Origin: Gnetum montanum
Lineage: Eukaryota; Plantae; Gnetophyta
NCBI GenBank assembly: GCA_015680685.1
Contig: MNCI01000738.1
Span: forward strand, 276,908-340,907
DNA length: 64,000 nucleotides
Direction of reading: 5' to 3'
Shown here: piece by piece, positions 1 through 53,438 of the stretch
Position numbering within the stretch: the stretch's first letter is position 1
How the letters are laid out: every line of letters begins with the position of its first letter
Notes under the pieces: model-generated
The model's database searches: none
What the model was told of the DNA's origin: nothing
What the model saw: the letters and a program-made list of their open reading frames with translations, nothing else
Position numbers and translations under genes: made by a program

Positions 1-1979
1 AGACTCCTGTAATCCTATTTATGACAAGCATCGAATCACCCCTAATCACCAGGTGTCGAACATTGAGTTCGCTAGCAGTTAGTAATCCCCTGAGGAGTCC
101 CTTGTACTCTACCACGTTGTTCATACAGGGAAAGGTCAAGCGATAAGCGTGAAGACACACATCCTCAGGTGATAGCATAATAACTATAGCGACATTGCCG
201 CCTCTAACAGTTGAAGCACCGTCGAAGTACAACGTTGCTTCGAGGCCTGTTAGGATAGGGCTTAAGCTATGTACATGTTCATCCAGAAATTCAGGCTCTA
301 TGGTTTCCTGACTGTCAATAGGTGATGTGACCAATTGGTCAGCTATCGCTTGGCCTTTCGTGGAAGATTGGCCAATGTAATGTAGGTCGAATTCTGCCAT
401 GATAGCTTTCCAATGAGCTATTCTGCTACTTTTGTATAAGTTATGCGTAATGGCCCTAAGAATATTATTTTTATAGATGATGTTGACATGGCTACGAAAA
501 AGATAATGTATACACTTCTTGAGCGTAAATACTAACGCTAAGTAGTTACGCTCTACTTCGTTGTACCTCGTTTCATACGCACATAGAGCATGACTCAAGT
601 AGTAGATGGGTACTTCCGACCCATCATTCCTCCTTTGACAGAGTAACGCAGCTAAGGCTACGTCTGAAGTTGCGAGGTATATATAAAATGGTTGATCCCT
701 TTGTGGCAGAAAAACTATTGGCAAGCATTGAAGCTCTTACTTCAAGCTATCAAACACACGCTGACAATCGTCTGTCCATTCGAAATTAACCCCCTTTTTA
801 ACCAAATGTTGTATAGGGTGTAGCTTGTCAGTTAATCTCAAGATGAATCACTTGATAAACTGTAACCTTCCCTGTAATCCGTGTAATTGCTTAAGACTTG
901 TAGGGGGTGTCTGTTCAACAATGGCCTTGACTTTGTCAGGATCTACGCATATGCCAGTTTTCGATACAACAAAACCTAGCATGCGTCTGGTTTTGACTCC
1001 GAACACACATTTTTTTGGGTTGAGTCGGAGGTCATATTTAGAGCATCTTTTAAGGACTAACTCCAGATCCTCTAAATGATCTTCTGACTTTAATGACTTA
1101 ACAACTATATCATCAATATAATCATTTAGTCTCCCTAGGAGGTAATCCCTATACATGTATGTCATGGCTCACTGATATGTTGCTCCGGCATTTTTTAAAC
1201 CAAAAGGCATCATGGTGTAACAAAAAAGTTCCCCAAGGAGTCATAAATGTCGTTATTAGCTGGTGCTCTGGATTAATGCATATTTGGTTGTAGCCTGAGA
1301 AGCCATCCATGAAGGACAAAAGCGCATGTCCAACGGTTGTATCTACCAATTGATCGATACTCGGCAATGGTAAGTTATCTTTGATTGTAGCTTTGTTCAA
1401 GTCCCGGAAGTCTATGCAGATGCGTATTCCTCCAGTCTTTTTAGGGACCACTACAATGTTAGATACCCAATCTTAGTAATCAACTGCGTAGATAAAACCT
1501 GCCTGGTACAGTTTAGTGATTTCATCACGTACTGCTAGCGCGACTTCTAGTTTGATCTTTCGTGCTTTCTATCTAATGGCTTTAATATGGGGATCTAGGA
1601 TTATGTTGTGTTGAATTAATCTCGGGTCTAGTCCCGACATATCCTCGTATGACCATGCAAACACCGTGATGTTATTCTAGAAAACCTATTTTATGTCATC
1701 ACTTACCTTTTGATCTAATAGAGAACTAACCTTGAGAGTTTTAGTCCCACCCCTATACATAACCACAGAGACCTCGTTGAGTGGATCTTCGGTTACATCC
1801 CCAGCTTCTAGATCTAGCGTGCACGTCGATTGCTCTGGCCAGTCTAGAGATGTTTCCGACATGGCTATGATTGCGTCATTAAGGGCTAGGTTAGTTTCTA
1901 TTAATGTGGGATCAAGCTGTCTAATGATTTCACCATGTGAGCTTGCTAAAACTAGCGGTGCAGATAAAATTTCATCCAT
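1..1979 (-). pseudogene. pol: pol (RT - RNase H - aRH) of Tat-A, with stops and frameshifts
   Basis: RT motifs VPKKTGGIRICIDFRDLNKA, LSFMDGFSGYNQI, YIDDIVV, LRLNPKKCVFG. RH region ~420-720. aRH at ~1-240 reads LYFDGASTVRGG...FPCMNNVVEYKGLLRGL...LVIRGDSMLVI. Confidence 0.93.
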
Positions 1980-2314
1980 CTGTCAATTATCCTCCAAAAT
2001 TGTCAAATAGGAGAGTAATTAGAAAGATACTAAGTTCAATGTGATAAGTGCTTAACGAATAACACTTAGTTTAGTGTACAAGATGTGACGTGGCGTTACT
2101 GAGCGTAAAGCCAACTGAATTTTAAATTTCACGAACAGCTTATGATTAATGAGACCTGATTACGAGGAGATAAGATATAGTAGTTTAGGGTCATTTCGGA
2201 CTGTAATGCGTGCGATATCTGATGCAATTAATGCCTCAATCCTCAGGTTCCAGCTCACACCAACATTAAGGCAAGTCTCGCTGAAATTGGGTATCAAGTC
2301 GGTTAAATTTTGCA

Positions 2315-2322
2315 TATAAGTA
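2315..2322 (+). promoter_or_regulatory. Putative TATA box of the antisense gene
   Basis: TATAAGTA ~150 bp upstream of ATG 2471. A TGACGTGGC (ABRE/G-box-like) motif lies at 2086-2094. Confidence 0.4.
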
Positions 2323-2470
2323 AGCAGTTTTCCTTTAGAACAGGCTGTTTGCTATCGCGAATTTGAATTCTTAGCTGTTACAAAGAGAAAGGAGGAGGAG
2401 CAGAAGACTGGAGTGCATTGTTTGCAAAGGCGTGAAGGTGCGAAAGTGTGAAGGTGTTAGAGCTGTAACA

Positions 2471-5400
2471 ATGGAACCTAAATTGAGAGGGAAGAATGCA
2501 AAATTAGCCAAGATTGACGAGGTGCAAGGGAGCGTGTAGCGTGCATCGCAGGCAATGGTCGAAGTTAGAGACCCTACGCCTTTGAATCGGTAGGTCATCC
2601 CTTGCTTATTTGTGTTACTTTTGCAATGTTTATTCTTGTAGCGTCATCCAGGTAAATTAGAATTTTAGACTATAGACCTCACGTTAGCACGAGGGTTTAT
2701 ACACTAGGATCGCGTCTATCGTCGTTGTCAGGGACAAACCTTGTACTGTTGCAAGGGTTTAGGCGATTTTGACATGAATAACTAAGCGTAATCTATAGAT
2801 TTTCTATATTTTAAGCATGCAAATATGAATCTAGAAATTGATGTGTTTATTGTTTCCTCTATACAATATCATGTTAAGACCTGTCCTAATCTTCTTAGAT
2901 ATAGTTGGGGTTTTATGCTGTGTAAACCCAATCGTACCTAATGTGCCTCCCCCTCAGACTCGGTTGCATGGGAAGGCCATATGGTTTCGAAAGGGTGCGT
3001 TGGAGTTTCTGCAATTTTTACTGCATAACTACAGTGTCATTGTATGGTCACACCTGTCTAGAGATGTTGCCGGCGCCATTCTGGAGCACCTGTTAGTGGG
3101 CTCTACGCAGGGGATTCTGGCTTTCTTGACAGATGGGGCCATCGACACTGGTCATCCCCAGGACCGCGAACTTAGCACCAGAGGATTGAGGTGCTTAAGT
3201 TGGATATGGAAAATGGCTCAGTTTAGCTGTTACCACACATACAACACTTTGTTCGTGGCCCGTCATGTCTCGACTGCCTTCCAGAACCCACCAGGCACGG
3301 TGTATTATTTAGGGGGTAAGTGATTTTATTGATGGTATTGTTATTATATGTCTATTTTCTGAAGCATAAGACAAACGTATGGGATATGGTACAGGTTTTT
3401 TATCCATGAGAACAAGTTAGTAGGCAATGGTGATACCTTAACTTGGACTAAAACGACAATAAAGGCGTTTACCTCTACCAGCAATGTACGTGCTGGTGTA
3501 ATGGGGCAGATCGACTTTGACCTTCATGAGTATCCCACCTGTTATGCTGATGCTTTCGAGAATTGCCAGAATCTCAGGTGGCTACATGACGATTGGACTT
3601 TGGATCCTCCCCTTACCATTGCGAACGTGCAGAGGAAACTTCCTCCATTTCCTTTGCCATTTGGACCTGGTAAAACTGCTGCATATTCTATTGTTGCATG
3701 GTATAATTGTGAATTGTGAATGTCGCATAATAGTATTTTTTGTTTTGACATGTGTCTTGCATTTTTTAGTTAGGAAATCCTGGGAGATTACCCTTACAAT
3801 TTCCAACCGTGAGGCGAATACCCTTTTTCTTCGCTATGGTGACATCAAGGAGGCACAGCGCTGGCTCAGCCATGCCGTGACCCCGGTTGCGGTGGTCACC
3901 AAGCAAGGCTAATGCACTTATTTTTGGCCGTAACCCCTGATGTCCCTGCCAGTGAAATGTTAACCTTGGTCAACTCCTTCAGCGAAAGGGCTGAGCGCTT
4001 TTGTACGCGCGTGCATCACGTACGTGTATATTTTGATATTGATGCCTAGCTTTTTAAAGACCTCTTTGGCATCCCCTCCGATGGCCTTCCTAGAGAGGAA
4101 AAGGCGAAGAGGAGCCTTGCTTTCCAGGAGTTGCTGGAGGAGTGGTTAGGGGCCAAAAAGGAGCCTAAGGGGATCCCTTGTGAGAGGATTGAACTAGAGA
4201 TTGCCAAGATGATTTATTCCCTGTTCTGGGCCCAGGCTTTCCCCAAAACACTCTCACAGGGGAAGTTCTTTTCTATAGAACAGACCCGCATCATGCGGGA
4301 GGTTATGGAGGAAGGGATCCAGTTCAACTGGGCAAGCTATTTTGCTAAGGGATTACGCACTGAGATGATCAGGCTTCGCCAGAAGCTTGATTCCTGTTTC
4401 AACGTGCATTACACCTTCTTCATAGCTTGCCTTCGGCATTTTTCCGAATTTTTGATCATCCAGAGGAATAGGGTTTGGGTACAGCAAGACTGAGATTGGC
4501 TATCCAAACCTTGGATTACCCACATTTTTGGCACTCCCCGTGGACAGGATCCCCCAGAAGGGATTGACGAATCTCTGTCTATAACGACAAGGGATTTCGC
4601 AGCATCTCGAGTGCGAGGTCCCAACAGCGTAGGTGGGGTGATGTCCACTTACACTGACGATGCCTCGTGAGGGAAACGCTTGGTGGTAGAAATTGTAGAG
4701 CCTTTAGCTCGGTGTAAAAGGCTTCGCTTGGTCAAGGCCCCTGTGGAGCCTAGGAGTGGCACAGGTCGAACTATGCAAGTCAGAGTTCAGTGGAGTAAAC
4801 CTCCACCTGGTAAACGTAAAAGAAATGTAGTGAGAGTTATTGTATTACACAATTTTTATTTAAGATATTTTGAATTGTCTAACTATGTATGTGATATGAA
4901 CAGCGAGACCTACGGAGTGATTGACCCCTGAAACAGGGGCAGTGATATTAAGCCATGGGGAAGGGGCCCTAGTTTTGGAAGAAGAGGCCCCAGCTGTTAG
5001 GACTAATGATGCATAGACCATTGTGCATGAGGAGAGGGAGGAGGCGGGTATTGTTGACGCACTCCCCACTGTAACAGGCAGAGGTGGTAAGTGTATTGGA
5101 TGTTTTGAGGTGTTTTTTTAGTAATTATGACTTCTAACTAAATTACGTTACAGGTGAAGAAGATGCATACACGCCCGCCTCTATAAGCAGAACATGGAGA
5201 GAGTTTCCTGACAAATTCGCCTTCATGGAAGGCGTTGTCAGCGATATGATCGAGCACCTCAAACGTGTCGATCCTGGAGCTGGTATGTTATAACTATAAT
5301 AGGTTTATTTTATCAGAAAGTGGTAATGTTTCACTCATATTTATTATGTTTACTATCAGGAGCTCGCCTTTGATGGAACCCAACGGAGCCCATTGATTTG

Positions 5401-6488
5401 GACATAGTGGGGCCTCCATCTGATGGGGCGGTCGTGCCACGCAGCATTTATGAGGAGATGCGTAAATGTGCGTTACGCTCGACTCGCTCCTTGTGGGAGA
5501 GTAAGAGTGTCAATGAAGACCTCTGGAAAAGGCTGCAGAGGTTAGAGAGGGAGAAGGAGTCTCTGGCCAAAGAGGTCGAAGACATAAAATCGCGATGCGA
5601 GTTCCTGCAGGCATGGGCAACGAGTGATGAGGACTGGCGCACAGCTATGATTGACTACTCTCGCTATTGGATCGTAATCAGGAACAGTGTGCAAACCAGT
5701 CAGAAGTTGGTGAAGCAGCGGATGCAAATAGAGTTGTTATGTCAGAAAAGCCAAGACTGGAAGGATTTATGTGCAAGTGTGCAGGAATGGGGGCAAAAAG
5801 AAAAGGATCACAAGCATCTGTATAAGCGAGAAAGTGTCGCTTATCGTCAGCATTACCGTGATTCTGTCGTCGAAGCTCAAACCTTGCGAGTATTCCTTGA
5901 TGTCATTGGTGCGTCTAAAGCTTTTGAGAGGTTCCAGGAGCAGGTGACAGTAAGCGCGTCACTGGAAAGAGAAATGACTCTTCCCTGGAGCGAGACTACT
6001 ATCCCTACTTTCTTCCCTGATCCGCCTCATTGGACTAGTGTGGAAAAGGGGAAGGTAAAGGTTGGAGCTACTCTGGGGAACGACGTATGGTCTGAACTAA
6101 TGGAAGATGAGATTATGCAGCGTCTATGGGTTGGTTTAAAACAGCTCCCTTTTGCTACGAAAGAAGGACCTTTGCGAGTAAGTTTAAACATTATTGCATC
6201 TAAATTTTTCTGATTATGGGGTTAAGTCTTTGCTAATGTATTTGCTGTATGCAGATACAAGAATTAGAGGGCGAAGGTGAACAGGGTGAAGAACGAGCAG
6301 AGGAAGAGGAGCGTGATAGCAAAGAGCATCCTCTTGTGGAGCCGACATCGGAACAAGGACCTCATGGGGATGGCATTCCTCACGAAGGAATACCTCCTAA
6401 GAAGGACAGCCCACTTGAGGACGATTTGTTAGGCTTGGAGCCCGACTTAAGGGATACGGGTGATAGTGGCACCAGTGGGGATGCGTAA
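2471..6488 (+). pseudogene. Antisense multi-exon accessory gene inside Tat-A (FCP1/NIF-like domain + PMD-like domain + coiled-coil + acidic tail), decayed
   Basis: Predicted exons ~2471-2589 (uncertain), ~2874-3315, 3395-3669, 3770-4809, 4904-5086, 5154-5282, 5360-6177, 6255-6488. Introns are short, AT-rich and GT..AG. The last five junctions join in frame. Premature stops are TGA/TAG, and 1-nt frameshifts fall near 3315/3396 and 3908. Confidence 0.85.
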
Positions 6489-6685
6489 CTATGACTTACG
6501 CATGATTTTATTGACTGGAATTGAACAATAGTTATATGAATATTGAAAAGACTAGCATTAAGATATTCTATATCATTTTAGATGCTATTTATTTTATTTT
6601 TTATTGGTTTTATCTCTCGATTTGCAATGCGTAAGTGTAATTGTTAAAAGTTTTGAATAATTTACGTTGTTGTGAAATAGAATTG

Positions 6686-6902
6686 CTAGTTTAAGGCCAT
6701 CGCGGGCCATCGTGTAACATTTTCATAAGATATCAATGAACTAGTTTAAGGCCATTGCGGGCCATGGCTAGTTTAAGGCCGTTGCGGGCCACAACTAGTT
6801 TAAGGCCGTTGTGGGCCTTGGCTAGTTTAAGGCCGTTGCGGGCCACCACTAGTTTAAGGCTGTTGCGGTCCTCAACTAGTTTAAGGCTATCGCAAGCCTA
6901 CT
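6686..6902. repeat. 27-bp tandem repeat CTAGTTTAAGGCCGTTGCGGGCCnnnn
   Basis: Six contiguous copies start at 6741, 6768, 6795, 6822, 6849 and 6876; a detached copy starts at 6686. Confidence 0.95.
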
Positions 6903-7129
6903 GCGTAAGTTTGGAAGCATAATTGATAATACCATAGATTTTTGAGTAATTGAACTAAAATGATCAAAGAGCGTAAATAGCGTATATGAAGAAACGTGAA
7001 TGGCGTAATGAATAGCAAGTGTAAATATATATGAATATATGAAAGAAGATGGACAATGCAAATTGCTAAGCGTAAAAGGAAAAATTAGTAAAGATGTAAA
7101 AATGCGCATAAATACCATTCAGATCGATC

Positions 7130-10100
7130 AATCACTAATTCGTAATTGTTTCTTTATGGCCTTTATGCTCAGTGGTGCATAAGGACGGGAAGGTTTGCAG
7201 TCTGACTCTTCTACACCACCATCCTAAAATGGGAGTTCGACCTAGGCTAGACTATCATCGTTCGTTTCGGTTTGTTTAGGAATTCGGGGATAGGTCTGAT
7301 CGTCCGATGTTTCTATCTCCAAACCCCGCTCTTCCTCGACATTGTTGATAGTCCTGGGGGTGATTTCGTCACCACGTATTACAACCTCTCTCCCTACGTA
7401 GGGTAGGTGTATTTCCTTATGGATTGGTGACGAAACCACCCTTAGTTGTGCTAGCCATGACCTCCCTAGAATCAAGTTGAACCCGGGCATCTCCTTGACG
7501 ACAAGGAATGTGGCATCCGTTGGGAATTGATCCCCTGCCACGAATTTGATGCACACCATCCCTTTGACCTGAACTTGTGCTCCATTGAACGACTTTATGC
7601 ACGTTGTCATTAAGGGACTGATCTGGTTAACCAGACCAAACCTATCCACGATGGGATAAGGAATGACATTTATAGCTACGCCATCGTCCACGTGCACCCT
7701 ACGGATCCAGTATTGACTGACCCGGATGGTGATAAACATGGGTTCAGTTGTCACTTGACCTTTCTCAGGATCATCTTTGATGGATTCATCATGAACGGTC
7801 AACAAGATAGGCCTAGGCCGCTCAACATCTGAGGGAAACATGACAACGTGTATCGCTTCCTCCTCCGCTGGTAAGCTTTCCTCCACAGGTATGGATGTTA
7901 GCATACGGACCATGGCCTCACGGTCTTTTTGAGATGTCATGAGTAGGTCATAGAGGCTCAGCGTTGTGTTTTTTTGTTTCAGAGCCTGTTTGACCTACGT
8001 AAATACGTCGAGCAAGTCCCGTTCTTTGCTGGCTTGTTTGTCCCCCCTGTCTTCTTCCATCTGCCCCAAGAGACGGATCTCCCAGGGTGGAACAGCATCA
8101 GTCGGAGGGTTGTTCTTTTTCTTGGCGAGGGTGGATGGTTGTGTTTTTGCACCCTTATCCTGCCCAAGAGGCGCAGACGAAGGAACAAAGGCCAAATGTT
8201 TGGGCCTAGCGAAGCCTAGCGTAAGGTGATTTTTTGCGGCATTACCAGACGCCTCCCCTTCCTTTTGTTTATTAGGTGATGTGTTAGAGGCTTGCCGCTA
8301 CGTAGAAGGGGCAGCTGATGATTTTGGCACCCTAAGAATGAAAGGCACCTTAGGCGTGGGCGCGGACATAGCCGCGGCTTTACTGTTACTGGGAGGTTGA
8401 GTTGAATCTAGAGAAGGCGCCCGAATGATGAAGGGTGGCCTTGAGGCATCTTTAGCTACCGGTGAAAAGCTTGTCCCCCTTGGTGAGTTGGTAGGTACAC
8501 CAAAAATAAAAGGTTGTTTGTGTGGTACTTTCCTCTCATTGTCTGTACTCACCATGTTGATCGTGTAGGGTGCGTTGTTTGCATTCAACGGATCCTGGTA
8601 CACGTGCAATGCTTGGTTTTTCGAGCATGTTGGACTACTACCGTTTAGTTTCAAATGACCATCATCGATCATGCATTGAATGTTGTCTTTCAATGCCCAG
8701 CAGTAATCTGGGTCATGACCACACAACTGGTGGTAGTCACAAAAATCATCCAGCCTGAAAGACCTCTGAACTGGTGGTTCGTCAGGTAGGGCTAAAGAAT
8801 GATTCTTTAGCAGTTCACAATGACGTCTGTGATGCTTCAGAGCTTCCTCGGATACCTTCTTAGGCTGAATGTATCCTGCCCCTAATAATTTTTTTAACAG
8901 TTCTGAGTGTTTTACAGACAGGGCTATATACTTTGAGCGATCTTTACGCTCAAAGTTTGGTTTTAACTGGGGGGATTTGTAGGAGCAGCTGTGCCTTGAC
9001 TGGTGCTGCTCGCACTAGCCATGGTCTCGGGTGATGGTGTAGGTGCCTTTTTATTTTTGTTCTTTGTGCCCTCAGCCAGTGCAGCTACTATCGTTGTCGT
9101 CGCTTTACCTTTGTCTTTGCCCTTGTTGTGAGCATTTTTGTAGGCGACACACGTCGAGTCCTTGCTAGCCTCCGCAGTGTCCTGAATGCTTTTGGTCTAG
9201 GAAAAAGCCTGATGTAAGGAGCTGGGGGAAAGATAATACAGCTTAGATTTGATAAAATCGTTAACTGCTCCTTGGAATATGGCTAGCAAATGGGCCTCCA
9301 CGATTGGCTCACGGATTTCATTCAAAGTAGTAGTCCACCGCTATATAAACTTTTGGACTAGTTCGAGGGGGTCTTGTTTCACTCCCATAAGTTGATCTAA
9401 CGTGACTTTCGGCTTTAGGTTGTATTTAAAGTGGGTCACGAACTGTGTCAAGAGCTCTTCCAAGGTTGAGATGGAAGAGCGAGGGAGGGCTCGATACCAA
9501 TCCAAAGCTTTCCCTGTTAGAGACATAGCAAAGACATGGATAATCGTGTGAGGCCACTATTGTAACAACAAGGATTCAGATCTAAAGGTGACCAAGTGAG
9601 CGTTAGGATCTCCCTCCCCATTATACTTGGTAAAATGAGGTAAGGACATCCTTGGGGGCAATGACAGCATGGGGACCGTTGGACTAATGGGATCATCTTG
9701 ATAGAAGTCCATGATCTGTATAGTGTCTGAGCCAGCGGCCTTAAGGCGTCTAACCTCCTTGGTGAGGGTTTGAATAAGTAAGAATGCTTGATCTAAGCTT
9801 ATAGATGAAGATGCTTGAGTAGGGGGAGCAGGGGGTTGAACCGAAAGAGCTGTGCCAGGGAGTGGAAATGGAGGAATGGGTTGACTGGTAGGTGGTGCAG
9901 CGGGGATCCCCGCGGACGAAGCTACCTGAGAAGACCACCACCCACTGGGTTGCGCAGAGAGATTAGCCACCGCTGGCTGTGCGGGATAGGGATAGGGATA
10001 TTGTGGGATCATCTGCGGAATATGCGTTGCAGGTGCAGCCAAGGGTTGCATACCATATACCGCAGACTGGTTATGTTGTGCCGTGGGGATGATCCACTAA

Positions 10101-10876
10101 CTCACGATGGGCTGTTGTATGGATGTCTGTGGTTGAACGACGGCTATGATCTGTTGGGTTGGAGGGGGTGGTAGCGATAAAGTCTGCACCGGGCAAGTTG
10201 TAGATATGGCATGAGGTTGGATCTGAGGGATGAAATAAGGCACGGTGGATACTGGGACCACTGACGGAATGCTGATTACGCATGGTGATGAAACCGCCCC
10301 CATGTTATTTTGGGGTATTTACACCTGCAGCCGAGATGGCTGTGTAGTGGCTTGTGGGACAACAGGAACGTGAGTTTGTGTGGTCACGGCGGGATTAAGA
10401 TGGGAGGCTTCTCTGTTGAGAGGGAATAAGGGATTTATGTAGGTATGGGGGCTCAGAGTGTGATATGAATGTTCAGATTGGGCTGCAAATTCATCATCCT
10501 CTTCCTCCCCATTCTGGGATTCCAACATAGCTCGTGTAGCCTGGCTCCTAGCCATGACCAACTGTGTTATAATTTCGTGGTGATGTTCTGTTAAAGGAAT
10601 AATGTCGTAGGCTGTTGGGGTAAAATCCTGACCCCCTCTATGGATGAGCTCAAAGTTTCTTTTTGCTTCGATCTCGGCTCGACTAAGGGCAAGCTTTGCC
10701 TAGATCTTGACGCATATGAAGTTATATTCCTCAGGCGTCATGATGGTGAAAATAGGGTCTTTGCCCTGTAGTCTCAATGACCGACGCGATGGTCCCTAAG
10801 GTTCTACAACACCAGAGGCTGGTCGGGTGATGGCGATAGGGTTTACAGATGTGGCACCCGAGTCAGTGGTAATCAT
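7130..10876 (-). pseudogene. gag: gag-protease of Tat-A
   Basis: ATG 10876 in GCCGCCATG context; Pro/Gln-rich N-terminus; FTKYNGEGDPNAHL and SLTGKALDWYRALPRSSI capsid motifs; Tat-type knuckle FCDYHQLCGHDPDYCWAL; protease RVHVDDGVAINVI...FNLILGRSWL. Mostly one frame, broken by TAG/TAA stops. Confidence 0.92.
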
Positions 10877-11134
10877 GGCGGCTGTGGTTGTGTATGCAGA
10901 ATCCATTGAACCAGTGGGTTAATGACAACGAGTGACTAGATCTAAAAGACGATGGACAAAGAAGATCGCTATTAGGCTTTCTACCTTGTAGGATTCCAAA
11001 GGAATCGTTATTGTGACCGATCTACACTGCACAATATTTCATAAACTTCCCTGGAGGTATTACGTTCACATTTTTGGAGACGCGGGTATAGATCGCTAAC
11101 AGGGCTACCCGTAAAAATACGAATCAGAGCCTAC

Positions 11135-11152
11135 GCCCTCCTTCTAGCGCCA
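11135..11152 (-). other. Primer binding site complementary to the 3' end of tRNA-Asn
   Basis: Minus strand TGGCGCTAGAAGGAGGGC, 6 nt after the LTR-terminal ...TTACA; matches the plant tRNA-Asn 3' end CCCTCCTTCTAGCG-CCA as I recall it. Confidence 0.85.
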
Positions 11153-11158
11153 GAAAAT

Positions 11159-12759
11159 TGTAACGATGGAAAATGTCGGCAGCTGGAATACCAAACAAAA
11201 TCCATGTACACAGTCTTAACCACGGATTCGTGTGAGGGCTGTGCTAGAGAAAACGAATCCGTAGTGTCTTGAATGGTCTTATCGATCAGACAGGGACTTA
11301 CTAAATCAGCAAATCGATGAAGATTGTAGACATTTTGTGAGACGATCTGATTCGATAAATTGTGAAAGGAGAGGAAAATGATGTAAATAAATTGCAATAA
11401 TGACAACGTTAACATGACAAAGGGAATTGGATCTAAGAGCAATGTGTGATTTCAAGATCTATACTTTGACCCGAAGGAAACGAGTATTTTGTATACAAAG
11501 TTACAATGGGAAGATCCCGATTATCTTGTGTGGAAACATACACAAAATAATAAGAAAATTGTTTAACAAGGAGTGCATAATAGAGCTTGTTCTACCTCAA
11601 AAGCCAAAGATGGAGTGCAAGGAAGGTCAAGCTCGGACGCCTATCAACCAACTATGTCTGACCAATAGATCTTGCCAACCTCACCAGGCGATCTCACGAT
11701 CTCTGATCTATCTTCTTCGCTTTGGATAGTCTCTGCTCAAAACTGCCAAGGATCACCAATGGGAGAACTGTATCTTCGCCCAAAAGGGGATGATCGCTCC
11801 TACTGCCAAAATGCTCCAAAAGAAAATGTTTTTTGTTTCTGCTCAAGGATGATAACTGCCAAAAAGTTGAAGATGCTAACTGCTACTCTCTCAAAATGTC
11901 CAGAAGTCCCTTTGCTAAAAAAGTCATCCTTTTTTCTTCGCCAACTGAGGTATTTATAATATGCAGAAAAGGCACAGCCTTGATGACACGTATATCGAAT
12001 TTTCCAAATACCGTTGACTTGACGAACTGGCTATGTGTCGTCACATGGCAACGTACGTTGTCAAAACTTTGGTGAAGTTGCTTCATGATTACGCAAAAAT
12101 ACGCTTATCAGCGTATCGCGCGTATGGATAGCAAATGCGTAACTGCTTTAGCCGACTTTACACTGTATTTCACTTGTTTACGCTGTGTCACGTGGCAAAG
12201 CATAACAAAGCATGGAAATAGTGAGTCTGGCTATTTTATGCTCCTTTACATAGGAAAGCGTAGTGAAGCGTAAAACATGATCAACCCGGTGATAAGTTAC
12301 GCTGGCGTACGCTGTGTAGCGTAACGAGCGTAAGGCGATCAATCTGCAAAAGAAAATGGCCATTCTATCATGCTTCCTTTGGACTTTCCCTTTGACTCTT
12401 TTTGAAGCTCATTACGCTACTTTACGTAACAGAGCATAAACCTGACCCTGGGCAAAAGACTTAGGAGGATATGCGAGAACTCGCATATTACACTGTTCAG
12501 GCCTTAAACTTCACCAAATCTGCTGAAGTAAGTCACCTTCTAATGTCAGACTATGTTAAGAAAAATTACACTAAGTTTCATTACGCTATGTTGCATAATG
12601 TAGCGTAAAAATAGAAACATAGTAAAAATTGGAATTTGCAAGGAAGTTGGAGACTTGATGCCGAGCGCCGTTTCGCCTTGCTTTGCCTTGTTCTACCTTC
12701 CAGAATTCTGTCACGAACTTTTGCCTGAATCGTGAATCTTCACCTGAGGCCGATTCACA
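11159..12759 (-). repeat. 5' LTR of Tat-A (outer boundary approximate)
   Basis: TG at 11159 next to the PBS; minus-strand TATAAATA at 11951-11958; candidate terminus TTCACA at 12759 where CpG content drops. The partner LTR is not in the window. Confidence 0.7.
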
Positions 12760-14240
12760 ATTTTCACGGTGTTTTATATATGGCTCAAAAGAATTACTTT
12801 CACAATAACCTTTTTACTTATAAATACCTTTGTATCTCATCTTTTCCAAATTTGATTGGAATTGGTATAGAAAATGCCATGGCAAGACTTCTTATAAGCA
12901 CAAAACATCACCATCCAAACCTTCTTATTTTGCTAAGATATGTAGGTATCGATATTACTGCTTATCCAAGGCCCATGGTGGACATAATAGATGTTGTATA
13001 TCACTTGCAAGGAATCTTGCAAGCATGTTATATGTTGCAACTTTCATTCTCATTCTTGGATTCTCCTCTAGATCATTTCTCTTTAGGGGTATCATACACC
13101 TTGTCAAAATAAGATTTTGAACCTCCATGTTGTTCTACCATATCTTTTTGATTGCAAGGAAAATTAATATATATCTTCTTGATCATTAAACACTATTTTC
13201 TTTCATCAACTAATTCTCCCACTACATTATCTAATTTTAGTAATATATAATTACATTATCTAATTTTAGGAGTATGAAATTATATTATCTTAATTCTTAA
13301 TGATCTTTATACCCCCATTAAGACATTAACTCTAGCAATATAATTAATTATGTGCCATAGAGATCTTAAGGGTATCTACAAAGCTTATTTTTCCAACAAT
13401 GTATGATAGTTATCCTTATGTTGTCGACTTTTAAGGTATAGTTCATGATATCATCAAATTATCAAGTAACCATATGATAAATCTGACCTCACCATTGTGT
13501 CCAAAGGGTTGAAATCTATAGCAAAAAATTCTTCATTCATAGAAAAAGGCTTTCAAAATCAAAAGTTATGGATTCTAGAGTTTAGAACCTTTTGTCACGA
13601 AAAACAAGATTTTCCAAGGGGTAACCTATCCTAGTTCTACTCCACAGCAAGCATACTTTATTATGAAATTCTTATCCATGTTGCTACCAAGGCATCAAAT
13701 TCTAATTTTGAATATTATTTCTATGTGTTCTTGATTTAAAATAATGGTTTGATAATGGAAATTTTAAATTTTTCATTAGTTGATGGGAATTTCAAATTTT
13801 CCTTTAGTTGATGGAAAATTTAAATCTTTTGTCTATTGACACCAAATTTTTCCATTGTGCAGTAGGCAAGGATGGTGCTAACAATAACCACTATAGTGTG
13901 TGGGTGGAGGCATTCGAAGCAAAGCATGCAACATTGGGAGCAAATCAGCAAGTAGGACGATGGATTCTAGGGGTTAGGATGGGTGTGTTAATGCACAGAC
14001 TATCATTTTCAGCATCAATATGTAGGTGATTGTGGAGGTTGTCATGGAGGAATCATTGCATGGGCATGATTAAGGTTGTAAACAGGTTAACATGGCCTAC
14101 ACATGGGCTATGTGAAGGGCTAGCATGGCTCATATAGCATTTCTATGGCTTGCGTGGCCCATGGTAATGTACTGCATTGCGGGGAAGATTTTGAGCACTA
14201 GAATTGACTATTATTAGTGACATTGGAGGCATTGGAGGTA

Positions 14241-14535
14241 CCCTTTATGAGTAGCATCATTGGTGCCTACGAAGTGCCATGGAAGCCCTTTATGGATTAC
14301 ATCATCTTTGCCCACATAGCACTGAGCCCTTTATGGACAACATTGTCAATGCTCATGGAGTGTTAGGAGAGCCCTTTATGGGTAGTGGCGTTACTGCCTA
14401 TAGAGCACTAGGAAAGCCCTTTATGAGTGGTTCCATCAATTACCATGGAGTGTTGGGGAGTCCTTTATGGATGACATTGTTAATGCCCATGAAGACTTAA
14501 TGGAGCCCATTATGGACAATGATATTGATGCCTGT
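14241..14535. repeat. Decayed ~45-bp minisatellite with core GCCCTTTATGG
   Basis: Cores at 14241, 14286, 14327, 14372, 14417, 14461 and 14506 (spacings 41-45). Confidence 0.85.
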
Positions 14536-22483: not shown

Positions 22484-23405
22484 TAATGAGTTTCAGTCTT
22501 TTGCATCAACTAGGCCCTGTCGATGCAACCTGTTGTGTCAACTAGGTCCCATGGACTAGGCCCTATCAATGAGGCCCCGTTGATGTAGTCTATTATGTTG
22601 ACATGGCCCCATCAATGCATGGGTCTATCCTAGTCTATTAATACATGCTCACAAGCTACATTTATGGCATCAATTATCAGAGTAGTAGCGAAGCTTTTGT
22701 AGTTTGTCTATTTGAAAGTTAAAATATTTTTCCTAATTGTTTGCACCAGGAGTCATTGAGTGTATGAATCTTTATTCAAGCACAATAGTGTGTGTGGCAA
22801 TGAAGATGAACTTCTTGAAAAACCTTACAACATTTTGGATAGCTTAAATGTTTCATTTATGCATTTAATGTTTTCAATTATTTATACAATGTGTTCTTGT
22901 AATTAAGCTAATAAAGTAATTAAGCAAGATAAGCTAGATAGATTAAATACATAAGTAGGAACACTTTGAGTGTAACACATATTCACTTGGTAATCCCAAC
23001 AATGTTATTGCATGGTATGCTTGGTCATGTAGCGGTTGGTAACCTAGCAGTGGATACATGGGTTCAGGGCATGTGCAAAAAGTGGGACTAGATGCTTATG
23101 TTAGAATTTCTTAGATACTAGTTATTTAGTTAAATTAAATTAGTTAATCCAATTACTTTTATCTTCCTTTAAATACTAAAATCATAAAATAAAAAATGAT
23201 AAATATTAGATGCCTCAATTACACTTAACCATACTGGTATATGTTACAAGTGTAATTGGGAAGACAACAAATGATCTTAAGGCAAGGTTCACTTCCTAAA
23301 AGACTGTTGTTCTAGAAACTATAAATTTCATGGAATTTTACTAGATCACACATAAACACTTTGTGATTCTTATGGTTGGGTGTAGGGGTACCTCACCACT
23401 CATCA
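22484..23405 (+). repeat. 5' LTR of Athila-1
   Basis: T(A)ATGA...TCATCA; colinear with 34862-35764. Confidence 0.92.
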
Positions 23406-23406
23406 T

Positions 23407-23424
23407 TGTTGCCTTTGCCAAGGA
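23407..23424 (+). other. Decayed tRNA-Asp PBS
   Basis: TGTTGCCTTTGCCAAGGA versus the Athila consensus TGGCGCCGTTGCCGGGGA, directly after the LTR. Confidence 0.7.
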
Positions 23425-23986
23425 CTTTGTTTGTTGAATGTGTGCTATCTAGGATTAGTGAATACTATCAATATCATTGGATGAACTCAAGGTCAACATC
23501 ACTCTCAAATGACATCTAATTTTATTTGTTTTGCAAAATTTCTTCTTCTCACAGGCATGAAAATGTCAAACTACTAGTCCCACATGAGTGCAAAGTAGTA
23601 TATACTCATCTAGATGAGTATATATTGGACTTCACCTTTATCTTACATCAACATGAATAACTATGATGCCATGATATGGAGGGCAACATCATCTGACCTC
23701 CTGATTGATTTGTACCAAGGATGCTATTTCAAACTCTTAAGAAGTTGGGAATTCTAGATTTTCATGAGGAATACGTTGTGAATGATTATGACTCTCAGGA
23801 CTACAATCCCACTAAAACACAATGTAAGTGATATCAACATCAAAAGAAGCATCATGAGGCTATGAAGAAAAAAATTTCACTAATCCCCTATTCCTACTAG
23901 ATTAAGATAACAATGAGGATCCTCCCTTTGAAGATTCTCAACATGAAGATTCTCCACACCTTGTTGTTGGTAATGAGCATGCGACC

Positions 23987-26900
23987 TTGAATCTACAATC
24001 AACTATTCATAAACTAGGTTCAAGAAAATGTGGTAGTCAAGGTAGGGACTCAGGTAAACATCACAATAGTAAGGGATCTAGGGATGGAGGTCATAATGAG
24101 CAAAAACGTAGTGGCCAATACCATGGTGGTGATTGTGGTCCACCTTCTCCTCCATCCTCTTCATCTGATTTTAAACATTCCTCCTCATCTACTAGTTCTC
24201 ATAGAAGCCATTGTCGAAATAATCATGATGAAGGTGATCAACAAGACAACAATGATTTTCAAATCCATCAAGAATGCAGAGGTGATAGAAACCATCATTA
24301 ACATCATCAACACAATCATGATGATGAACCTCTGCTACCAAATCAAAGCATGCTCAAAATTGCAGAGGTAGTAAAGATCCCAACCAAGCATATGAAAGAT
24401 AGATAGATCAAGTGCTTAGACATGAATAGTATTCCATGATTTGAGGGGAATACAATTTTGATTCATAGAACTATCTACAAGATTTCCATGATGTTTGTGC
24501 CTTACAAAACATTGAAAATGACTAGAAAAAACTCAAGCTTTTCCCTAGGACACTCATTAAGAAAGCTAAGAGCTGGTACTACTCCCTAGAACTGGAATCC
24601 ATTCACTGATATAGTACCATGTTAGAGCTATTTAATGACAAATACCAAATGTACTCGAGAGTGTCTAATCTAAGAAGGAAAATCCAATGCTGGAAATAGG
24701 GAATACATGAACACTTGGATGCCACCATGGATAGATACTATTCACTCTTACACCCATGCCCTAGCCATGGTTATTCTTAGAGGGAACAAATTCACCACAT
24801 CATAGATGGGCTTAGAGAAAAATGAGAAGAACTTTTGGGGTGTATGCGGAAGGGAGATTGTCTGATCTAAGAGCTCATCATATCTAAAGGCTGATAGAGT
24901 AGGTAGTAAAAGAAGAAGGTGACTTATGAAAATGGGAAAATGTAGAAGAGTATAATAGAAACCTTTCCATCCAGAAATGGGAGGTCCAATTTTATGATGA
25001 GGGAGAGTTATCACTTGATGAAGTGGTGAACAGGAAAACCTTGCCCATTCAAAAATCTATTTCTAATATTTTGGCAAAGGTTGATAACTTATGGGACTCT
25101 TTGGATGAAAAATTCTAAACTACTATGAAGATTGCTAAAGAATCTAGAGAGAAAAATAGTGATCATAATCATAGGAGGTGAAAAGAAGCTAAACATGCCT
25201 ACCAAAGAGATAAAGGCAAAGCTGCTACCATAGAAGAAGTTGTGGAAACTAACTCTAATGATGAAATTGGATGTGACATCTATCAATATGAATATACAAA
25301 AGGGTGTTTTCCTATAGTGTCAAACTTACAAGAGTCTAAGGTGTATGCATTGAATCTCTGATTAGCATGTAGGCAAGCATCTAGATGATTACCTTATCCT
25401 CAAGGTAATCCAAGATAGTTCCACTAACAACAACAAGCTTACTACCCAAGTGGAGCTCCACCACATCCATATGAACAATATCAATAATGCAACAACCACA
25501 ATCATGGGGAATGCCATTACCAAGGTAGTAATATCCTTACAGAAAACCAAATCCATATGGATACTATGTTTAGCAACCCATCTCTCCAAGACATTTTTCA
25601 AGTCATGCCTCATTTCAGCATCATTAGTACCCTCTGAAGTATCATTGAACACATTCAACATCTACTTAAGAAGAAAACCCATATTCATATCATCCTCTAC
25701 ATTCATCTACATACATAGCTTTGCCCTTCACCTAGTTAGCTCTTGCTCTGTCCATGTAAGGTGAGATTCCTTCATAGTTGCAACAACAAAATGCTACAAG
25801 GGTTGTACATTCACAATTGGCTTTTTAGCTGAGTGGTTCATACAATTGATCTAGAAAAAGATCCTTCTTCCAATCCAATAGTCCTCTCCAACCCTCGTAA
25901 CCTAGTACAGTTGATTGCCCTACATCTCTAGTACCCTCATCCTCTACATCAAATACCTTTGAGTGCCCTTCAAATCAAACACCACCTTAGCTCCCCACTA
26001 TGATGCTAACTCATGCTATTTTTGATTGGATCAAGGCTAGCAATCTTTTCGCTAAAATATTTGACCTAGGAAGTCCTTTCATTTACTTATAGATCACTAG
26101 ACATGAGCCATGCAAGGCTCTTTTTGATTTTATTTCTAGTGTCAACCTCATCTCTCATGACATTTACAAGGCTAGAGCCTACCACCTCCCAAGAAGAGAA
26201 ATATCCATTTAGAATTGGCAAACCAGTCAATCACTATTCCTTTGGGATTACTGGAGGACATTGTAACCACAATTAGTGGGTGGTCCTATCCTACCAATTT
26301 TCTAGTGATTAAGGTTGAAAACTACAAAGGTGACTTTCCCATCATTATGGGAAGAGCATGGTTAAGCACTATAGATGCATGTATGGACATAAGGAACCTC
26401 TCCTTGGAAATCTCCAAGGAAAATGAATTTGAAAAGTTAGAGAAGAAGTTTATTCTATGCATTGTGTATAGTGATAATGGATGCAATTGTGTGCAAAATA
26501 TTTGGTCCACCAAAAGTACAGACATCAAAGTATGTAATTAGTGTGCACTAAAAATAGATATTCAAAGGTGTCTGTACATAGCAGCCACAAAACAAAAGGG
26601 CACCTAGTGGCTGATAGCTAACTCAAATAGTAGCACATTATGCATGGAACCAACTAAGAGCCTAACATGTGCTTATTTTGAAAGCATGAATGAACTTAAG
26701 AAAGGTCATCACTAACTCTATGAAGATGAAGATGATGACACCTATTAGGGAGAGTTGAAAATCCTTTGATAATTTCAAGCAGGAGCCCCTAGAACTAAAA
26801 TTCCTACCAACCAACATGGAATATGAATTTTTAAACAATGGTAAATTAGTCATAATTAATGTCAAACTTGCTCCTGAACAAAGAGAAAATCTATTTAAGG

Positions 26901-29560
26901 TGGTTAAAAAATGGCCAAAAAAATTTTCTTTGTCATAGCCTAAGTTGATAGGAATCAATCCAGGGATATGCCAACATTGCATTTACACTAACCTAGCCAT
27001 GAAGCCAAGAACGCAGCCATAGAGATAGCTAAATTCAAAATTGAAGCATATCATAAAAGAGAAAATAGAGCAACTCCTCAATATGGGGTTCATTTATCCC
27101 ATTGTAGATAGTGAGTGGGTTAGCCCATTTATAATTGTGCTAAAGAAAGTTGGCAAGTGGTAGATCTGCATTAACTTTAGGCTGTTGAATACGGTAATAT
27201 TTAAAGATCATTTTCTATTGCCATTTGTGGATCAAGTGTCGGACATCATATCTAGGCATTGCTATTATAGCTTCTTGGATGGTTATAGTGGCTATAACCA
27301 AATCCAAATTGTGCTAGAAGATAAGGCCAAGACAATATTCACAAGTTCCTGGGGGACTTTTGCATATTGTAAGATGCCATTCGGTTTGTGCAATACCCCT
27401 ACAACATTTCAACACCTAGTCCTTAGTATTTTCCAATAGTAGATCAGTAGTGATGTGGAAGTCTCCATGGATGACATCCAAACCTATGAAGCTACATTTG
27501 GGCAAACCTTGAACTGCCTTGAGCAAGTATTAAAGAGATGTGTCGAAACAAATTTGCAACTCAACTATCAAAAAAATCATCTTATGGTCCAATAAGGCAC
27601 TATGTTAGGTTACCGAATTTCATAAGAAGGGATTAAGGTAGACCTAGCAAAGATAAAGGTCATCCAATGAATTACACGCTAACCAAAGATAGTCAAAGAT
27701 GTTAGATCATTCCTTGGACACACTGGCTACTACCAGCGACTCATAGAGAATTTTTATAAGATTACAAAGTTGTTGGTTGAGCTGACAAAGAAAGATGCTC
27801 TGTTCATCTAGACCAAGGAATGTAAACATGAATTCCAGGAATTGAAGGAGAAACTTGTAGAAACTCCAATTCTATGGGCACCAGATTGGTCTAGACCATT
27901 TTACATAATAACAAATGCATCTAATTATGATTTGGAAATGGTGCTCATGTAGTGGATGTAATATGAATGTAGTCGATGATAAGAAACATTCATATTACAT
28001 CCACTACATGAGCCAACACATTGTAGATGCATAGTTAAATTACACCACTACAAAGAAAAAATTAATGGTAGCGATGTACACTTTTAAAAAGTTTAGGCAC
28101 TATGTGCTTGGCTATAAAGTATTTGTGCACATGAATCATAGTGAAATTTACTTCCTCATGAACAAGCTAGCCATGAGCCCTTGTATCATATAGTGGCTTG
28201 TGATCTTGTAAGAATTCAATCTCACAATGGTAGATCAAAAAGGAACCAAAATTGTGGTCACTAACCACCTCTCTAACTTAAGATGGGATAATAAAGAGGA
28301 GGACAGCCCACTCTCTGATCAGCTTCTAGATGAACTCGCATTTATAATGATTAAACAAAATAGAAACAACATGGTGAAATGGCATCCTTAGCTATCTTAT
28401 CACTTAAGAGATGCCACAAGATCTTGACTTTAAAAAGAAGCAATAATTTCTTCATTGGACCAAATACTTCATGGAAATCAACAAACATCATTACAAGGTG
28501 TGTGTTGATGGCCTAATTTGTTGGTGTGTCCTTGATGAAGATTAATTGTGTGTGCTCTAGGATGCTCATGAAGGACCTTGTAGAGGCCAATATGTAGAGA
28601 GACATATGGCCATAAAAATCCTAATGGCAAGATACTATTGGCCTAGAATATTCAAAGATGCCCACAAGTTTGTTTGATCTTGTGAATGTTGTTAATGAGA
28701 TGGTGGGATGACCACTCAAATGGAAGGTCCTCAATAGTGAATTCAACCATTAGAGCATTTTGACATATGGGGCATTAACTTCATGGGTCCCATCATATCC
28801 ATTTCCAATGGGAAGGCATATATCATTGTAGTAGTTGACTATACAAAAAATGGCTAGACGTAGTAGACATTACTGATTGTACATCGTCCACTATTTCTAG
28901 ATGTATACAAAAAAATGTTGTAAATAGGTTTTGGATGCCATGTACACTAATTTTTAACAATGGAACTCATTTCATAGGAGCCACTTTTAGAAAGTTGATG
29001 CAATGCTTGGGGGTTAAACATAAATTAACAACACCATACCATCCCCAAGCTAGTGGTCAAGTAGAGGTAACTAACTAAGAGATCACAAAGATCTTAATAA
29101 GGACCATATGCAAATATAGAAGAGATTGGAGCACCAAACTCAAGAATGCTCTCTGGGCCTATTTCTCAACATGGAAACTCCCTATTAGCTACTCTTCCTA
29201 CAAGCTAATGTATGGAAAACTTCCAATACTCCACAATTCAGTTCGAGCTCTGTACACTCTTAACAATTTGTGATATAGATCTTGACCTAAGTCTAGCACA
29301 AAAAGAAAGATTGATCAACCTAAATGTGCTAGAGGAAAATTGATTGGTGGCCTTATCTTTGAATCAGATGTACAAGGCATTCAACAACCAAAATCATGAC
29401 CTCAAAATATGAAAAGTAACATTTCAACTAGGAGCTAAGATTCTCTATTGGAAACTCACACATGTAACCCAAAAGAAAAAAAATTCAAACATTGTGGGAG
29501 AAAGCTTATATAATTGATCAAACCTTTTCCTTTGGGGACATGTTAATCTACAAACCTAAA
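23987..29560 (+). pseudogene. gag-pol: gag-pol of Athila-1 (boundaries approximate)
   Basis: gag KLKLFPRTL..KAKSWY (~24530); PR LANQSITIPLGLLEDI...PIIMGRAWL (26215); RT SEWVSP, KDHFLLPF, YSFLDGYSGYNQI, MPFGLCN, MDD (27110-27480); RH LNYTTT (~28035); INT DIWGINFMGP, TTPYHPQASGQVEV (28760-29070). Confidence 0.92.
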
Positions 29561-34650: not shown

Positions 34651-34861
34651 TGCTATTTAATTTTGAAGAATCATGTCATGGTGTTCAATTTTGTGTTATG
34701 AATATCATAATTTTTGTAATGTGTTGGTCTATACACTGGGCACTTAGTACTGTTATGTCTATGTTATTTTGTTTTGTTATGTCGAAAACTAGTTAATAAT
34801 TTCATACCTTCCCAATTTTATAAAGAACTAAAGGATGAGTTTTCATTTATTCATGGGGGTA

Positions 34862-35764
34862 TGATGAATTTTAGTCTATTACATCAATTGGACCCCATGA
34901 ACTAGGCCTCGTTGATGTAGTCTATTGTGTTGACTGGGCCACGTCGACTAGGCCCTGTCAACAAGGCCTCGTGGATGCAAGGGTTTATTCTAGTTTATAA
35001 ATACCTACTCACCAGTCACATTTATGGAATCAATTATCAAAGTATTAGTGAATATTTTGTATTTTTTCTATTTGAAAGTTAGAATATTTTTCTCAAGTGC
35101 CTACAACAAGAGTCATTGAGTGTATGGATCTTTATTCGAGCATTATTGTACCTAGGCATAATAGTATGTGCAACAATAAAGATGAACTTCTTGATAAACC
35201 TTGTAGCATTTTGGATAGCTTAAATGTTTCATTTATCCATTTAATTCTTTCAATTATTTATTCAATTATTTCTTTTAATTAAGAAAGATAAGCTAGATAG
35301 ATTAAACACATAAGTATGAATGCTTTGAGTGTAACACATATTTACTTGGTAATCTTAGCAATGTTATTGCTTGGTACACCCAGTACCGTAATGCTTGGTA
35401 TACTAGCAATGGATACATGGGTTTAGGACATGTGCATAAAGTGGGATTGCATTCTTATGTTAGGACTACATAGATACTAGTTAATTAGTTAAATTAAATT
35501 AGTTAATCCAATTACTTTTATCTCCCTTTAAATACCAAAACCATAAAATACAAAATGATAAAAATTAGATGACTTAATTACACTTAATCATACCAATATA
35601 TGTCAAAAGTATAATTGGGTAGACAAAAAATGGCCTTAAGGCAAGGCTCACTTCCTAGAAGACTAGTGCGCCAGAAACTACAAAGTCCATGGAATTCAAT
35701 CGGATTGTGCATGAACGCTTTGTGATTTGTATGGTTGGGCGTAGGGGTACCTCATTGCTCATTA
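34862..35764 (+). repeat. 3' LTR of Athila-1
   Basis: TGATGA...TCAT(T)A after the PPT and followed by TSD AATAT. Confidence 0.92.
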
Positions 35765-52675: not shown

Positions 52676-53438
52676 CTTAGTATTTCAATCAGGAAATTAT
52701 CAAATGTTTTTGAAAGCTCTATTGAATGCAATCTTTGACATCTATTAAGTAGCCAAAATAGAGACTCATAATTTGTTGTTTATGCAGTAATCTTTGGTAG
52801 TATAATAAGATTACCTTTATAAAATTACTTGTTGAGCTCAAAAAGTTTGAACAATTCATAGTTATTGAATTAGGAATAGGTTTATTATGAATTGTTTACT
52901 CATATCAATTTATCTTACTTAAATATGTGATATTTCATGCAAATCTGCTTTCTTTTATTTCTCTTACTAAGTCCATTGAATCTTTCTCTATTTTTAGTTT
53001 TCTTGTGGAACTTTCTCTCTAATGAAGATTAGGAGTAGATTGGCAAAGTTTTTCTTAAATGTTTTTGCAAAATTTTATTTGTTACAATTAGTGTACTATA
53101 GGGACCATATAGACCAAGTGATTGAACAAAATAGGAACCTTCAACAACTCAGAGTATTTAACAAAGTTATTAGAATCTCTTTTATGATAGTCAATTACAG
53201 TTTTATACATAACCTAGCCATTTCAACATTTGCAAGAACAAACACATACTCACATCTAGTACATTTCATAACTACTATGTCTGTTTGGAGGTATATGGGC
53301 CTTGGTGTTGCCAAAGAGAAACAAGCACCTAAATCTTATTTGAAGAACACCTTTGATCCCTTGAATTTTCAATGTCATGAAACCATGAGGCTCTCAACCA
53401 TTAGTGGTCAGATTCCAAAAAATTACCAATAGTTCTTT

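Follow-up and report, generated by a model that had tools for sequence, protein, structure and literature searches.

Within a 64,000-nucleotide stretch of the Gnetum montanum genome (GCA_015680685.1, contig MNCI01000738.1, 276,908-340,907, forward strand; hereafter the window) lies a retrotransposon that by its domain order is of the Tat type of Ty3 elements, and antisense to its gag and pol genes runs a predicted seven-exon gene whose first exon encodes a NIF/FCP1-homology HAD phosphatase domain with catalytic residues replaced. It is likely that this is a probably inactive NIF domain in an accessory gene common to the whole element family. The fuller proposition, in which the antisense accessory gene uses a dead NIF/HAD module to promote expression of its own Tat-type Ty3 element, stands at about even chances.

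The open reading frame (ORF) 2871-3323 holds a NIF/FCP1-homology HAD domain. It is a single stop-free plus-strand frame, from an ATG at 2871 to a TGA at 3323, and contains all of the peptides quoted in a preliminary description of this DNA, which had recognized an FCP1/NIF-like HAD phosphatase domain with altered motifs. The ORF matches Pfam NIF (PF03031) at 23.4 bits (E 5.2e-5), above the gathering cut-off of 21.8 bits, and also gives a weak match to HAD_SAK_2. Among 1.84 billion representatives there were 13 matches at E <=0.001, all 13 of them NIF proteins aligned over most of the ORF at 25-33% identity (best E 4.2e-8). A relatives-only NIF profile, made from 38 aligned proteins picked from 82 to limit redundancy and with the window row left out, finds residues 2-148 of the window domain at E 1.1e-18 and is matched by nothing else in the six frames of the window; in an Atlas search with the ORF, NIF was assigned to 29 of the 30 matches. 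An AlphaFold2 model of the exon 1 domain (mean predicted local distance difference test score, pLDDT, 83.4) has the HAD Rossmann-like fold and is closest to SCP/CTDNEP1, a result that is not fully independent in that the input was a 39-row alignment of NIF relatives. Foldseek ranks CTDNEP1, SCP1-3, Tim50, Fcp1 and UBLCP1 together at 11-19% identity, with CTDNEP1 and SCP1 the best (E 8e-6 to 1e-5); by structural comparison SCP1 is the best match (Z 13.0, root mean square deviation 2.9, 129 residues aligned), and haloacid dehalogenases match at Z 9.8-10.6. Because the alignment biases the model toward the NIF fold, it is the sequence evidence that carries the NIF claim. Pfam, database search, relatives-only profile, Atlas and fold thus all agree with the identity first proposed. 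The range first given, 2874..3530, is right for the domain to about 3315; its remainder, 3316-3530, comprises a predicted intron followed by a portion of exon 2, with no NIF match. Other searches returned little: phmmer of the domain against PDB sequences gave 7 weak unrelated matches and no NIF match, word-indexed searches with the ORF gave no match, near or at longer lengths, and the metagenome contigs searched with the ORF held no relative. Of the 52 proteins found in a profile search, none exceeded 40% identity and none was an annotated member of the element family. The domain and its motifs are as follows.

2871..3315, plus strand: exon 1 of the antisense gene, NIF/FCP1-homology HAD domain, 148 codons with no stop (Pfam, profile, model)
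2898..2909, plus strand: HAD motif I; D10 kept, V12 against N in relatives, G13 kept
3045..3053, plus strand: HAD motif II; W59 and S60 kept, H61 against S/T in relatives
3189..3191, plus strand: HAD motif III; R107 against K in 38/38 relatives
3258..3275, plus strand: HAD motif IV region; A130-R131-H132 against D-D-S and T135 against K (D, D and K in 38/38)

In comparison to the 38 relatives the window domain keeps D10, G13, R40, F46, W59, S60, W113, T126, N139 and P140, and is changed at V12, H61, R107, A130, R131, H132 and T135. K107, D130, D131 and K135 are invariant in all of the aligned relatives, and all four are replaced. Among the features of a HAD phosphatase, the motif I nucleophile Asp (D10) and the motif II Ser/Thr (S60) are therefore present; the second Asp of motif I (V12), the Lys of motif III (R107) and the D(D/N) or G(D/N)xxxD of motif IV (A130-R131) are missing. 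The residues D10-I11-V12 and A130-R131-H132 are those of the preliminary description, and the catalytic loss that it described extends further, to the motif III Lys and Lys135. Its statement that the second motif I acid had been lost is correct insofar as V12 is non-acidic; the change, however, was from Asn and not from Asp, position 12 being Asn in 36 of the 38 relatives and a gap in the remaining 2. Since the relatives already have Asn there, this acid was absent before the window domain diverged. All four motifs are reported to be required in Nem1, an enzyme of the NIF family, for which motif roles are given in the accessible part of the source (PMC13543951). By analogy with those roles, the window domain lacks its general acid, the Lys of motif III and the ligands of Mg2+, and hydrolysis appears unlikely without the motif IV acids.

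The loss is not peculiar to this copy. DNA contigs from three organisms (A, B and C; about three quarters of each run was read) were aligned on 2875-3290, yielding 3,706, 2,972 and 3,963 contigs respectively, counts that measure depth and not copy number. Most are only 80-95% alike, and the family therefore has many divergent copies. Every bin of the interval was covered, and there were 24 places where another letter reaches at least 55% in any run, none of them in codons 10, 12, 60, 61, 107, 130-132 or 135. The majority state of related copies in the three organisms lacks the catalytic set; the missing catalytic Asp residues, which the preliminary description had left as a property either of the family or of one copy, are thus missing in the majority of the copies aligned. 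The 24 majority differences fall 9:1:14 by codon position, and 16 are synonymous, whereas random placement of these changes (20,000 draws) gives an expectation of 7.6 (P=0.0003). Because of this excess the frame was under selection during the family's history, present-day selection being outside the scope of the synonymous test. As judged from these alignments, the domain is probably selected and inactive, rather than the decayed remnant of one copy.

The nearest relatives form a D-x-N-G subfamily of NIF proteins whose plant members bear the name "FCP1 homology domain" or, through automatic transfer, TIM50, and which has members in cryptophytes and environmental records as well; examples are P0001 of Helianthus, the P0007 cluster of Sphagnum and P0043 of Cryptomeria. 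Fungal NIF proteins with DXNXT, called pseudophosphatases in the accessible text of a 2026 survey (PMC13216928), appear to belong to the same subfamily. The window domain resembles the D-x-N-G proteins in full-length alignment, in motif order, in the first Asp and motif II Ser and in a common NP motif. It differs in lacking N12, K107, D130, D131 and K135, all five of which they keep, and in lying inside a retrotransposon, fused to unrelated exons. With the FCP1, SCP, CTDNEP1 and UBLCP1 phosphatases and Tim50 it shares the fold, at the low identity given above, and is without DxDx(T/V), the motif III Lys and the motif IV acids. The donor was sought in trees and approximately unbiased (AU) tests, one of the trees and the tests being based on 31 rows, drawn from 105 domains plus two loci with two long rows dropped. 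Three trees place the long branch of the window domain (2.6-4.2 changes per column) differently, beside P0080-type proteins in two and with environmental proteins in one; none of these placements was starred, and they shift with the model. Seed-plant (p 0.50), gymnosperm-like (0.40) and environmental (0.77) groupings were all retained by the AU tests, so that comparison with host NIF proteins gives no stable placement and all three origins are compatible with the data.

Two further observations concern this subfamily. Six GC- and CpG-rich metagenome loci (L001-L006; for example L001:72-842 and L004:106-2670) hold, beside ORFs of low complexity, a single-ORF D-x-N-G NIF gene that has motif IV intact and is 77-94% alike from one locus to another; the loci may represent accessory regions of some other mobile element. 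An NPPGTV-like stretch is common to these loci and the window domain, and the trees give the pairing no support. Among host proteins of the Asteraceae (P0001, P0002, P0004, P0006 and P0009) there is a second NIF repeat in which motifs I and IV are degenerate, a parallel loss.

That the domain is carried by a transposable element, as first proposed, is borne out by the flanking gag, reverse transcriptase (RT) and RNase H domains and by the gene model. The parts of the element that lie in the window are these, some of them labelled with the GCGTAA/TTACGC motif discussed below and with reference to long terminal repeats (LTRs).

1..1979, minus strand: pol, carrying RT (RVT_1) and two RNase H domains, the second matching RVT_3 (E 5.7e-8); interrupted by stops and a frameshift; leaves the window at its left end before any integrase, which like the 3' LTR would be expected outside
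1980..7115, minus strand: predicted intron between protease and RT, 5,136 nt, donor AATG|GTATTT, acceptor TTGACAG|ATG, phase 0; encloses the antisense gene
7116..7994, minus strand: putative protease region, which we take to be such from retropepsin-like motifs seen by eye only; no Pfam hit
8301..10760, minus strand: gag region, broken; Retrotrans_gag at 9344-9556 (E 4.4e-6)
12089..12608, no strand: cluster of 10 GCGTAA/TTACGC motifs upstream of gag, probable 5' LTR region

The order gag, protease (by eye), RT, RNase H, additional RNase H is that of the Tat clade of Ty3/gypsy, and by this order the element is taken as a Tat-type Ty3 retrotransposon. The candidate donor at 7115 and acceptor at 1980, both of phase 0, join the two pol frames; the RNA alignment excluded the acceptor side. 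This copy of the element is broken, gag and pol being disrupted along with the antisense gene. No terminal inverted repeats were found at the ends of the 5.1-kb insert, neither a second LTR nor a clear primer site was found for the element within the window, and a comparison of its RT with viral contigs gave no relative. The arrangement of RT, RNase H and additional RNase H is known as the "retroviral" structure of Tat elements and is reported, in the available portions of two sources, from angiosperms, several gymnosperm groups, ferns, clubmosses and hornworts (PMC13468544; PMC10508981).

The predicted antisense gene occupies 2871-6488 on the plus strand and has about 1,060 codons. Its six predicted GT-AG introns are 49-94 nt long and 70-77% AT, and five of the six predicted junctions keep the best frame, with splice sites chosen by eye among candidates. 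Following exon 1 its parts are:

3316..3364, plus strand: predicted intron 1, GT-AG, 76% AT and at 49 nt unusually short; the reading frame of this copy is not maintained across it
3365..3700, plus strand: predicted exon 2, a 111-codon open frame with no Pfam match
3774..4809, plus strand: predicted exon 3, a region resembling plant hypothetical proteins and then low-complexity; frameshift near 3905 and three in-frame stops
4904-5086 (two stops) and 5154-5282, plus strand: predicted exons 4 and 5, with a GT-AG intron at 5087-5153 between them
5360..6177, plus strand: predicted exon 6, coiled-coil-like, with weak coiled-coil Pfam matches below cut-off; one stop
6255..6488, plus strand: predicted exon 7, an acidic low-complexity tail and stop codon
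6682..6899, no strand: array of seven 27-28-bp repeats directly behind the gene

No Pfam family was found above cut-off in exons 2-7. Exon 3 matches unnamed plant clusters only in the Atlas (0.90), with a sub-threshold lead to DUF1985, and a single-sequence model of this region has a pLDDT of 41.9; the exon may resemble the extra-ORF domains of Athila and Ogre, a likeness that Pfam did not confirm. An apparent 44-nt intron near 3909-3952 was rejected in favor of a frameshift since it is not AT-rich.

Expression of the family's antisense gene is suggested by RNA reads from related copies, which cover it in all four runs (362, 32, 187 and 41 reads). One run, X13, is strongly one-sided over 2968-3635 (exons 1-2), as would be seen with a plus-strand transcript if the library follows the usual convention; neither of the two oligo-dT runs shows such a bias over the gene. 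Upstream, at 2300-2470, X13 reads of related copies lie on the gene's strand, and nine molecules start at 2404, possibly in a 5' part of the antisense transcript.

Insert and element share a short motif and a base composition. The most enriched hexamer of positions 1-12,700 is GCGTAA/TTACGC (z 11; the best hexamers of four other chunks of equal size reach 4.3-5.9). There are 28 occurrences in this region against a shuffle mean of 3.1 (maximum 8 of 200) and one in the other 51,300 bases, and 27 of the 28 are preceded by A or T. The insert has 12 (shuffle mean 1.5, maximum 6 of 200) and the element outside it 16 (mean 1.9, maximum 8); the sites lie in pol, in both flanks and the exons of the antisense gene, in gag and upstream of gag, and an inverted pair, GCGTAA-N7-TTACGC, occurs twice (5460-5478 and 6483-6501). 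In 2-kb bins along the window, the seven bins over the element have observed/expected ratios of 0.58-0.81 for CpG and 0.66-1.23 for CWG; in the other 25 bins CpG is 0.00-0.49, mostly below 0.3, and CWG mostly 0.1-0.5. The step between 1-14000 and 14001-64000 is sharp, with the exception of bin 50001-52000 beside an N gap (0.49, 1.36). The shared motif, the CpG retention and the absence of terminal repeats from the insert speak for an insert that has long belonged to the element and against one that nested in it recently.

Elsewhere in the window two long direct-repeat pairs (22550-35575 and 47643-62342), about 12.36 and 12.59 kb apart and about 80-88% alike, are probably the LTRs of older AT-rich retrotransposons. 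Decayed protease- and RNase H-like frames were seen by eye at 26176-26538, 55471-55809 and 57397-57810, and there are tandem arrays at 14239-14514 (a degenerate unit of about 45 bp) and 44641-44910 (a 135-bp duplication of 99% identity).

The mechanism proposed starts with capture of the domain from a D-x-N-G gene, after which the site for metal binding was lost and the fold retained as a module for binding. Since the gene runs antisense to the genomic RNA of the element, its introns would remain in that RNA and survive reverse transcription, and because it lies in the predicted gag-pol intron, splicing would remove it from the polyprotein message and leave the polyprotein uninterrupted; both steps would follow from established retrotransposon biology. 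Without the motif IV acids Mg2+ would not be bound and hydrolysis would be unlikely. R107, R131, H132 and H61, which replace acidic or small polar residues, would suit a metal-free grip on phosphate in a protein or nucleic acid, and the NIF domain, an unnamed domain, the coiled-coil-like part and the acidic tail would together make an adaptor protein. Most plausibly such an adaptor would act at the dispersed GCGTAA sites and limit silencing of its own family, much as the VANC proteins of VANDAL DNA transposons, according to the accessible part of PMC5735166, attach to short motifs that are enriched in their own transposons and bring about loss of methylation. The likeness to that system, so far as its available description goes, is an accessory gene in an element with one enriched short motif; the difference is that VANC binding and demethylation were shown by experiment, whereas the window element offers motif enrichment and CpG retention only, and that VANDAL is a DNA transposon and the window element a retrotransposon. 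Homology to VANC was not found, although no search was aimed at it. From motif enrichment and CpG retention a role in silencing is perhaps indicated. The most specific form of the proposal, a retrotransposon counterpart of VANC that recognizes (A/T)GCGTAA, grips a phosphorylated host chromatin or transcription factor in its HAD pocket and keeps the family under-methylated, is unlikely.

A number of points weigh against reading the gene as a dead module in the element's service. D10 and S60 remain in place, the match of folds is circular in part, and a minority subfamily with the acidic residues would escape a survey that detects only copies at least 80% alike and letters at 55% or more. In this copy the gene model itself is interrupted by two frame breaks and six in-frame stops, and picking splice sites by eye inflates the agreement of frames. 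Only 13 of the 622 RNA reads are at least 95% alike, so that they derive from related copies; depth is low, the strandedness of the libraries is not on record, and at this depth no spliced read was found for any predicted intron in the four runs. The architecture rests on one full copy together with the shared motif. That motif could be the site of a host transcription factor, CpG retention could be due to a younger age of the element or to a trait or composition of the lineage, and no DNA-binding domain was found in the antisense gene by Pfam, the Atlas or the exon 3 model.

The preliminary description had also linked the domain to the state of the C-terminal domain (CTD) of RNA polymerase II. 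A decoy that holds on to the phosphorylated CTD, keeping host CTD phosphatases away from it, would account for a domain that looks dead and yet is selected, in an element that is itself transcribed by RNA polymerase II (available text of PMC7264820), and SCP1 is the top structural match with SCP1-3 and Fcp1 high in Foldseek. However, the best sequence relatives, 13 of 13, are D-x-N-G proteins or their degenerate repeats and not CTD phosphatases, a profile of the NIF-relative alignment puts UBLCP1 (E 5e-10) above SCP1 (E 5e-6), and CTDNEP1 and Tim50, which are not known to be CTD enzymes, fit the model about equally. Because CTDNEP1, SCP1-3, Tim50, Fcp1 and UBLCP1 rank together, CTD and non-CTD proteins alike, the fold search favors no substrate, and the literature searched held no paper on the substrate of the D-x-N-G subfamily; the link to the CTD is thus not upheld, and a decoy appears quite unlikely. 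Of similarly small likelihood is a real accessory protein whose dead HAD domain contributes only a folded spacer or a surface for protein contacts, neither binding phosphate nor opposing silencing, the motif being the site of a host factor. Its kept positions are indeed mostly core residues, Tim50 is a precedent for reuse of the NIF fold without catalysis in fungi (PMC13216928, accessible part), and the failure to find a DNA-binding domain is in its favor; but most of the copies aligned have basic residues or His at several positions of the site, and the motif is spread over coding and non-coding parts of the element.

It is improbable that the domain is instead a changed enzyme, with Asp10 as nucleophile in a Mg-independent HAD reaction or with a new site formed from Asp10, His61, His132 and a nearby Cys. 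The retention of D10 and S60, the conservative change of Lys to Arg, the lack of any majority change at the site codons, the fold shared with haloacid dehalogenases and the activity retained by some proteins with degenerate motifs (from the available portion of PMC13216928) would all allow it. The requirement for all four motifs reported for Nem1 (PMC13543951, in part), the difference at five polar site positions and the very long branch speak otherwise. The 5.1-kb insert could also be a passenger, a nested transposon or captured host gene that is useless to the element, its domain a relic of earlier selection; extra ORFs have been described 5' or 3' of the polyprotein region and not inside it, the Ogre spacer is far shorter (mean 274 bp in the accessible part of PMC6317226), and there is one full copy only. 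Against this slim chance stand the enrichment of GCGTAA both inside and outside the insert, the uniform CpG content across the element, insert ends without terminal repeats, candidate splice sites that join the two pol frames, and thousands of divergent contigs per organism.

The accessory gene, taken as a probably inactive module belonging to its element, can be set beside other plant elements. Ogre has a spliced intron between protease and RT (PMC6317226, in part), and the Tat and Ogre elements resemble the window element in the order gag, protease, spacer, RT, RNase H and extra RNase H, with a spacer that in the window element bears candidate in-frame splice signals; the spacer of the window element, unlike the Ogre intron, is 5.1 kb and encloses a whole antisense gene. 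Tat elements commonly have extra ORFs in antisense orientation, which are described from the region between pol and the 3' LTR and mostly lack a recognizable origin (available parts of PMC7264820, PMC11963269 and PMC6317226). From what is accessible of PMC7264820 and PMC11963269, Retand, Grande and RIRE2 are similar in that an extra gene with parts of coiled-coil type has been retained throughout a Ty3 family and lies near a tandem array, and in Retand and Grande that gene is antisense, as here. Ty3 elements of Phalaenopsis (PMC9289625) likewise carry a recognizable host-type enzyme domain, of AlkB type. In comparison to all of these the window gene differs in its position, its six predicted introns and its HAD domain, with an active site lost rather than retained. 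For the 15 non-canonical domains found in a screen of 121 angiosperm genomes, neither HAD nor NIF is among those named in the accessible part of its Results. No NIF, HAD or phosphatase term occurs in five supplementary files of PMC6317226 (17,418 characters), a portion of a source whose table of extra-ORF domains is possibly elsewhere, nor does "phosphatase" occur in the main text of PMC13547354 and PMC13468544. In the literature searched, which mostly excluded subscription papers, there was no NIF domain in a retrotransposon and no gene inside a protease-RT intron. What is known already is thus a retrotransposon accessory gene with a borrowed host-type domain; what would be new is the NIF domain and its location in a predicted protease-RT intron.

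Most extra ORFs of plant LTR retrotransposons have an origin or function that is unrecognizable, as described in the accessible text of PMC7264820 and PMC6317226. An identifiable enzyme domain that is disabled in most copies, in a frame that was selected, names a pocket and a class of ligand. An intron-bearing antisense gene within a predicted protease-RT intron would escape surveys for single long ORFs flanking the polyprotein. The motif and the CpG retention bear on whether LTR retrotransposons use sequence-specific anti-silencing, a question that in turn bears on their high copy numbers in methylated plant genomes.

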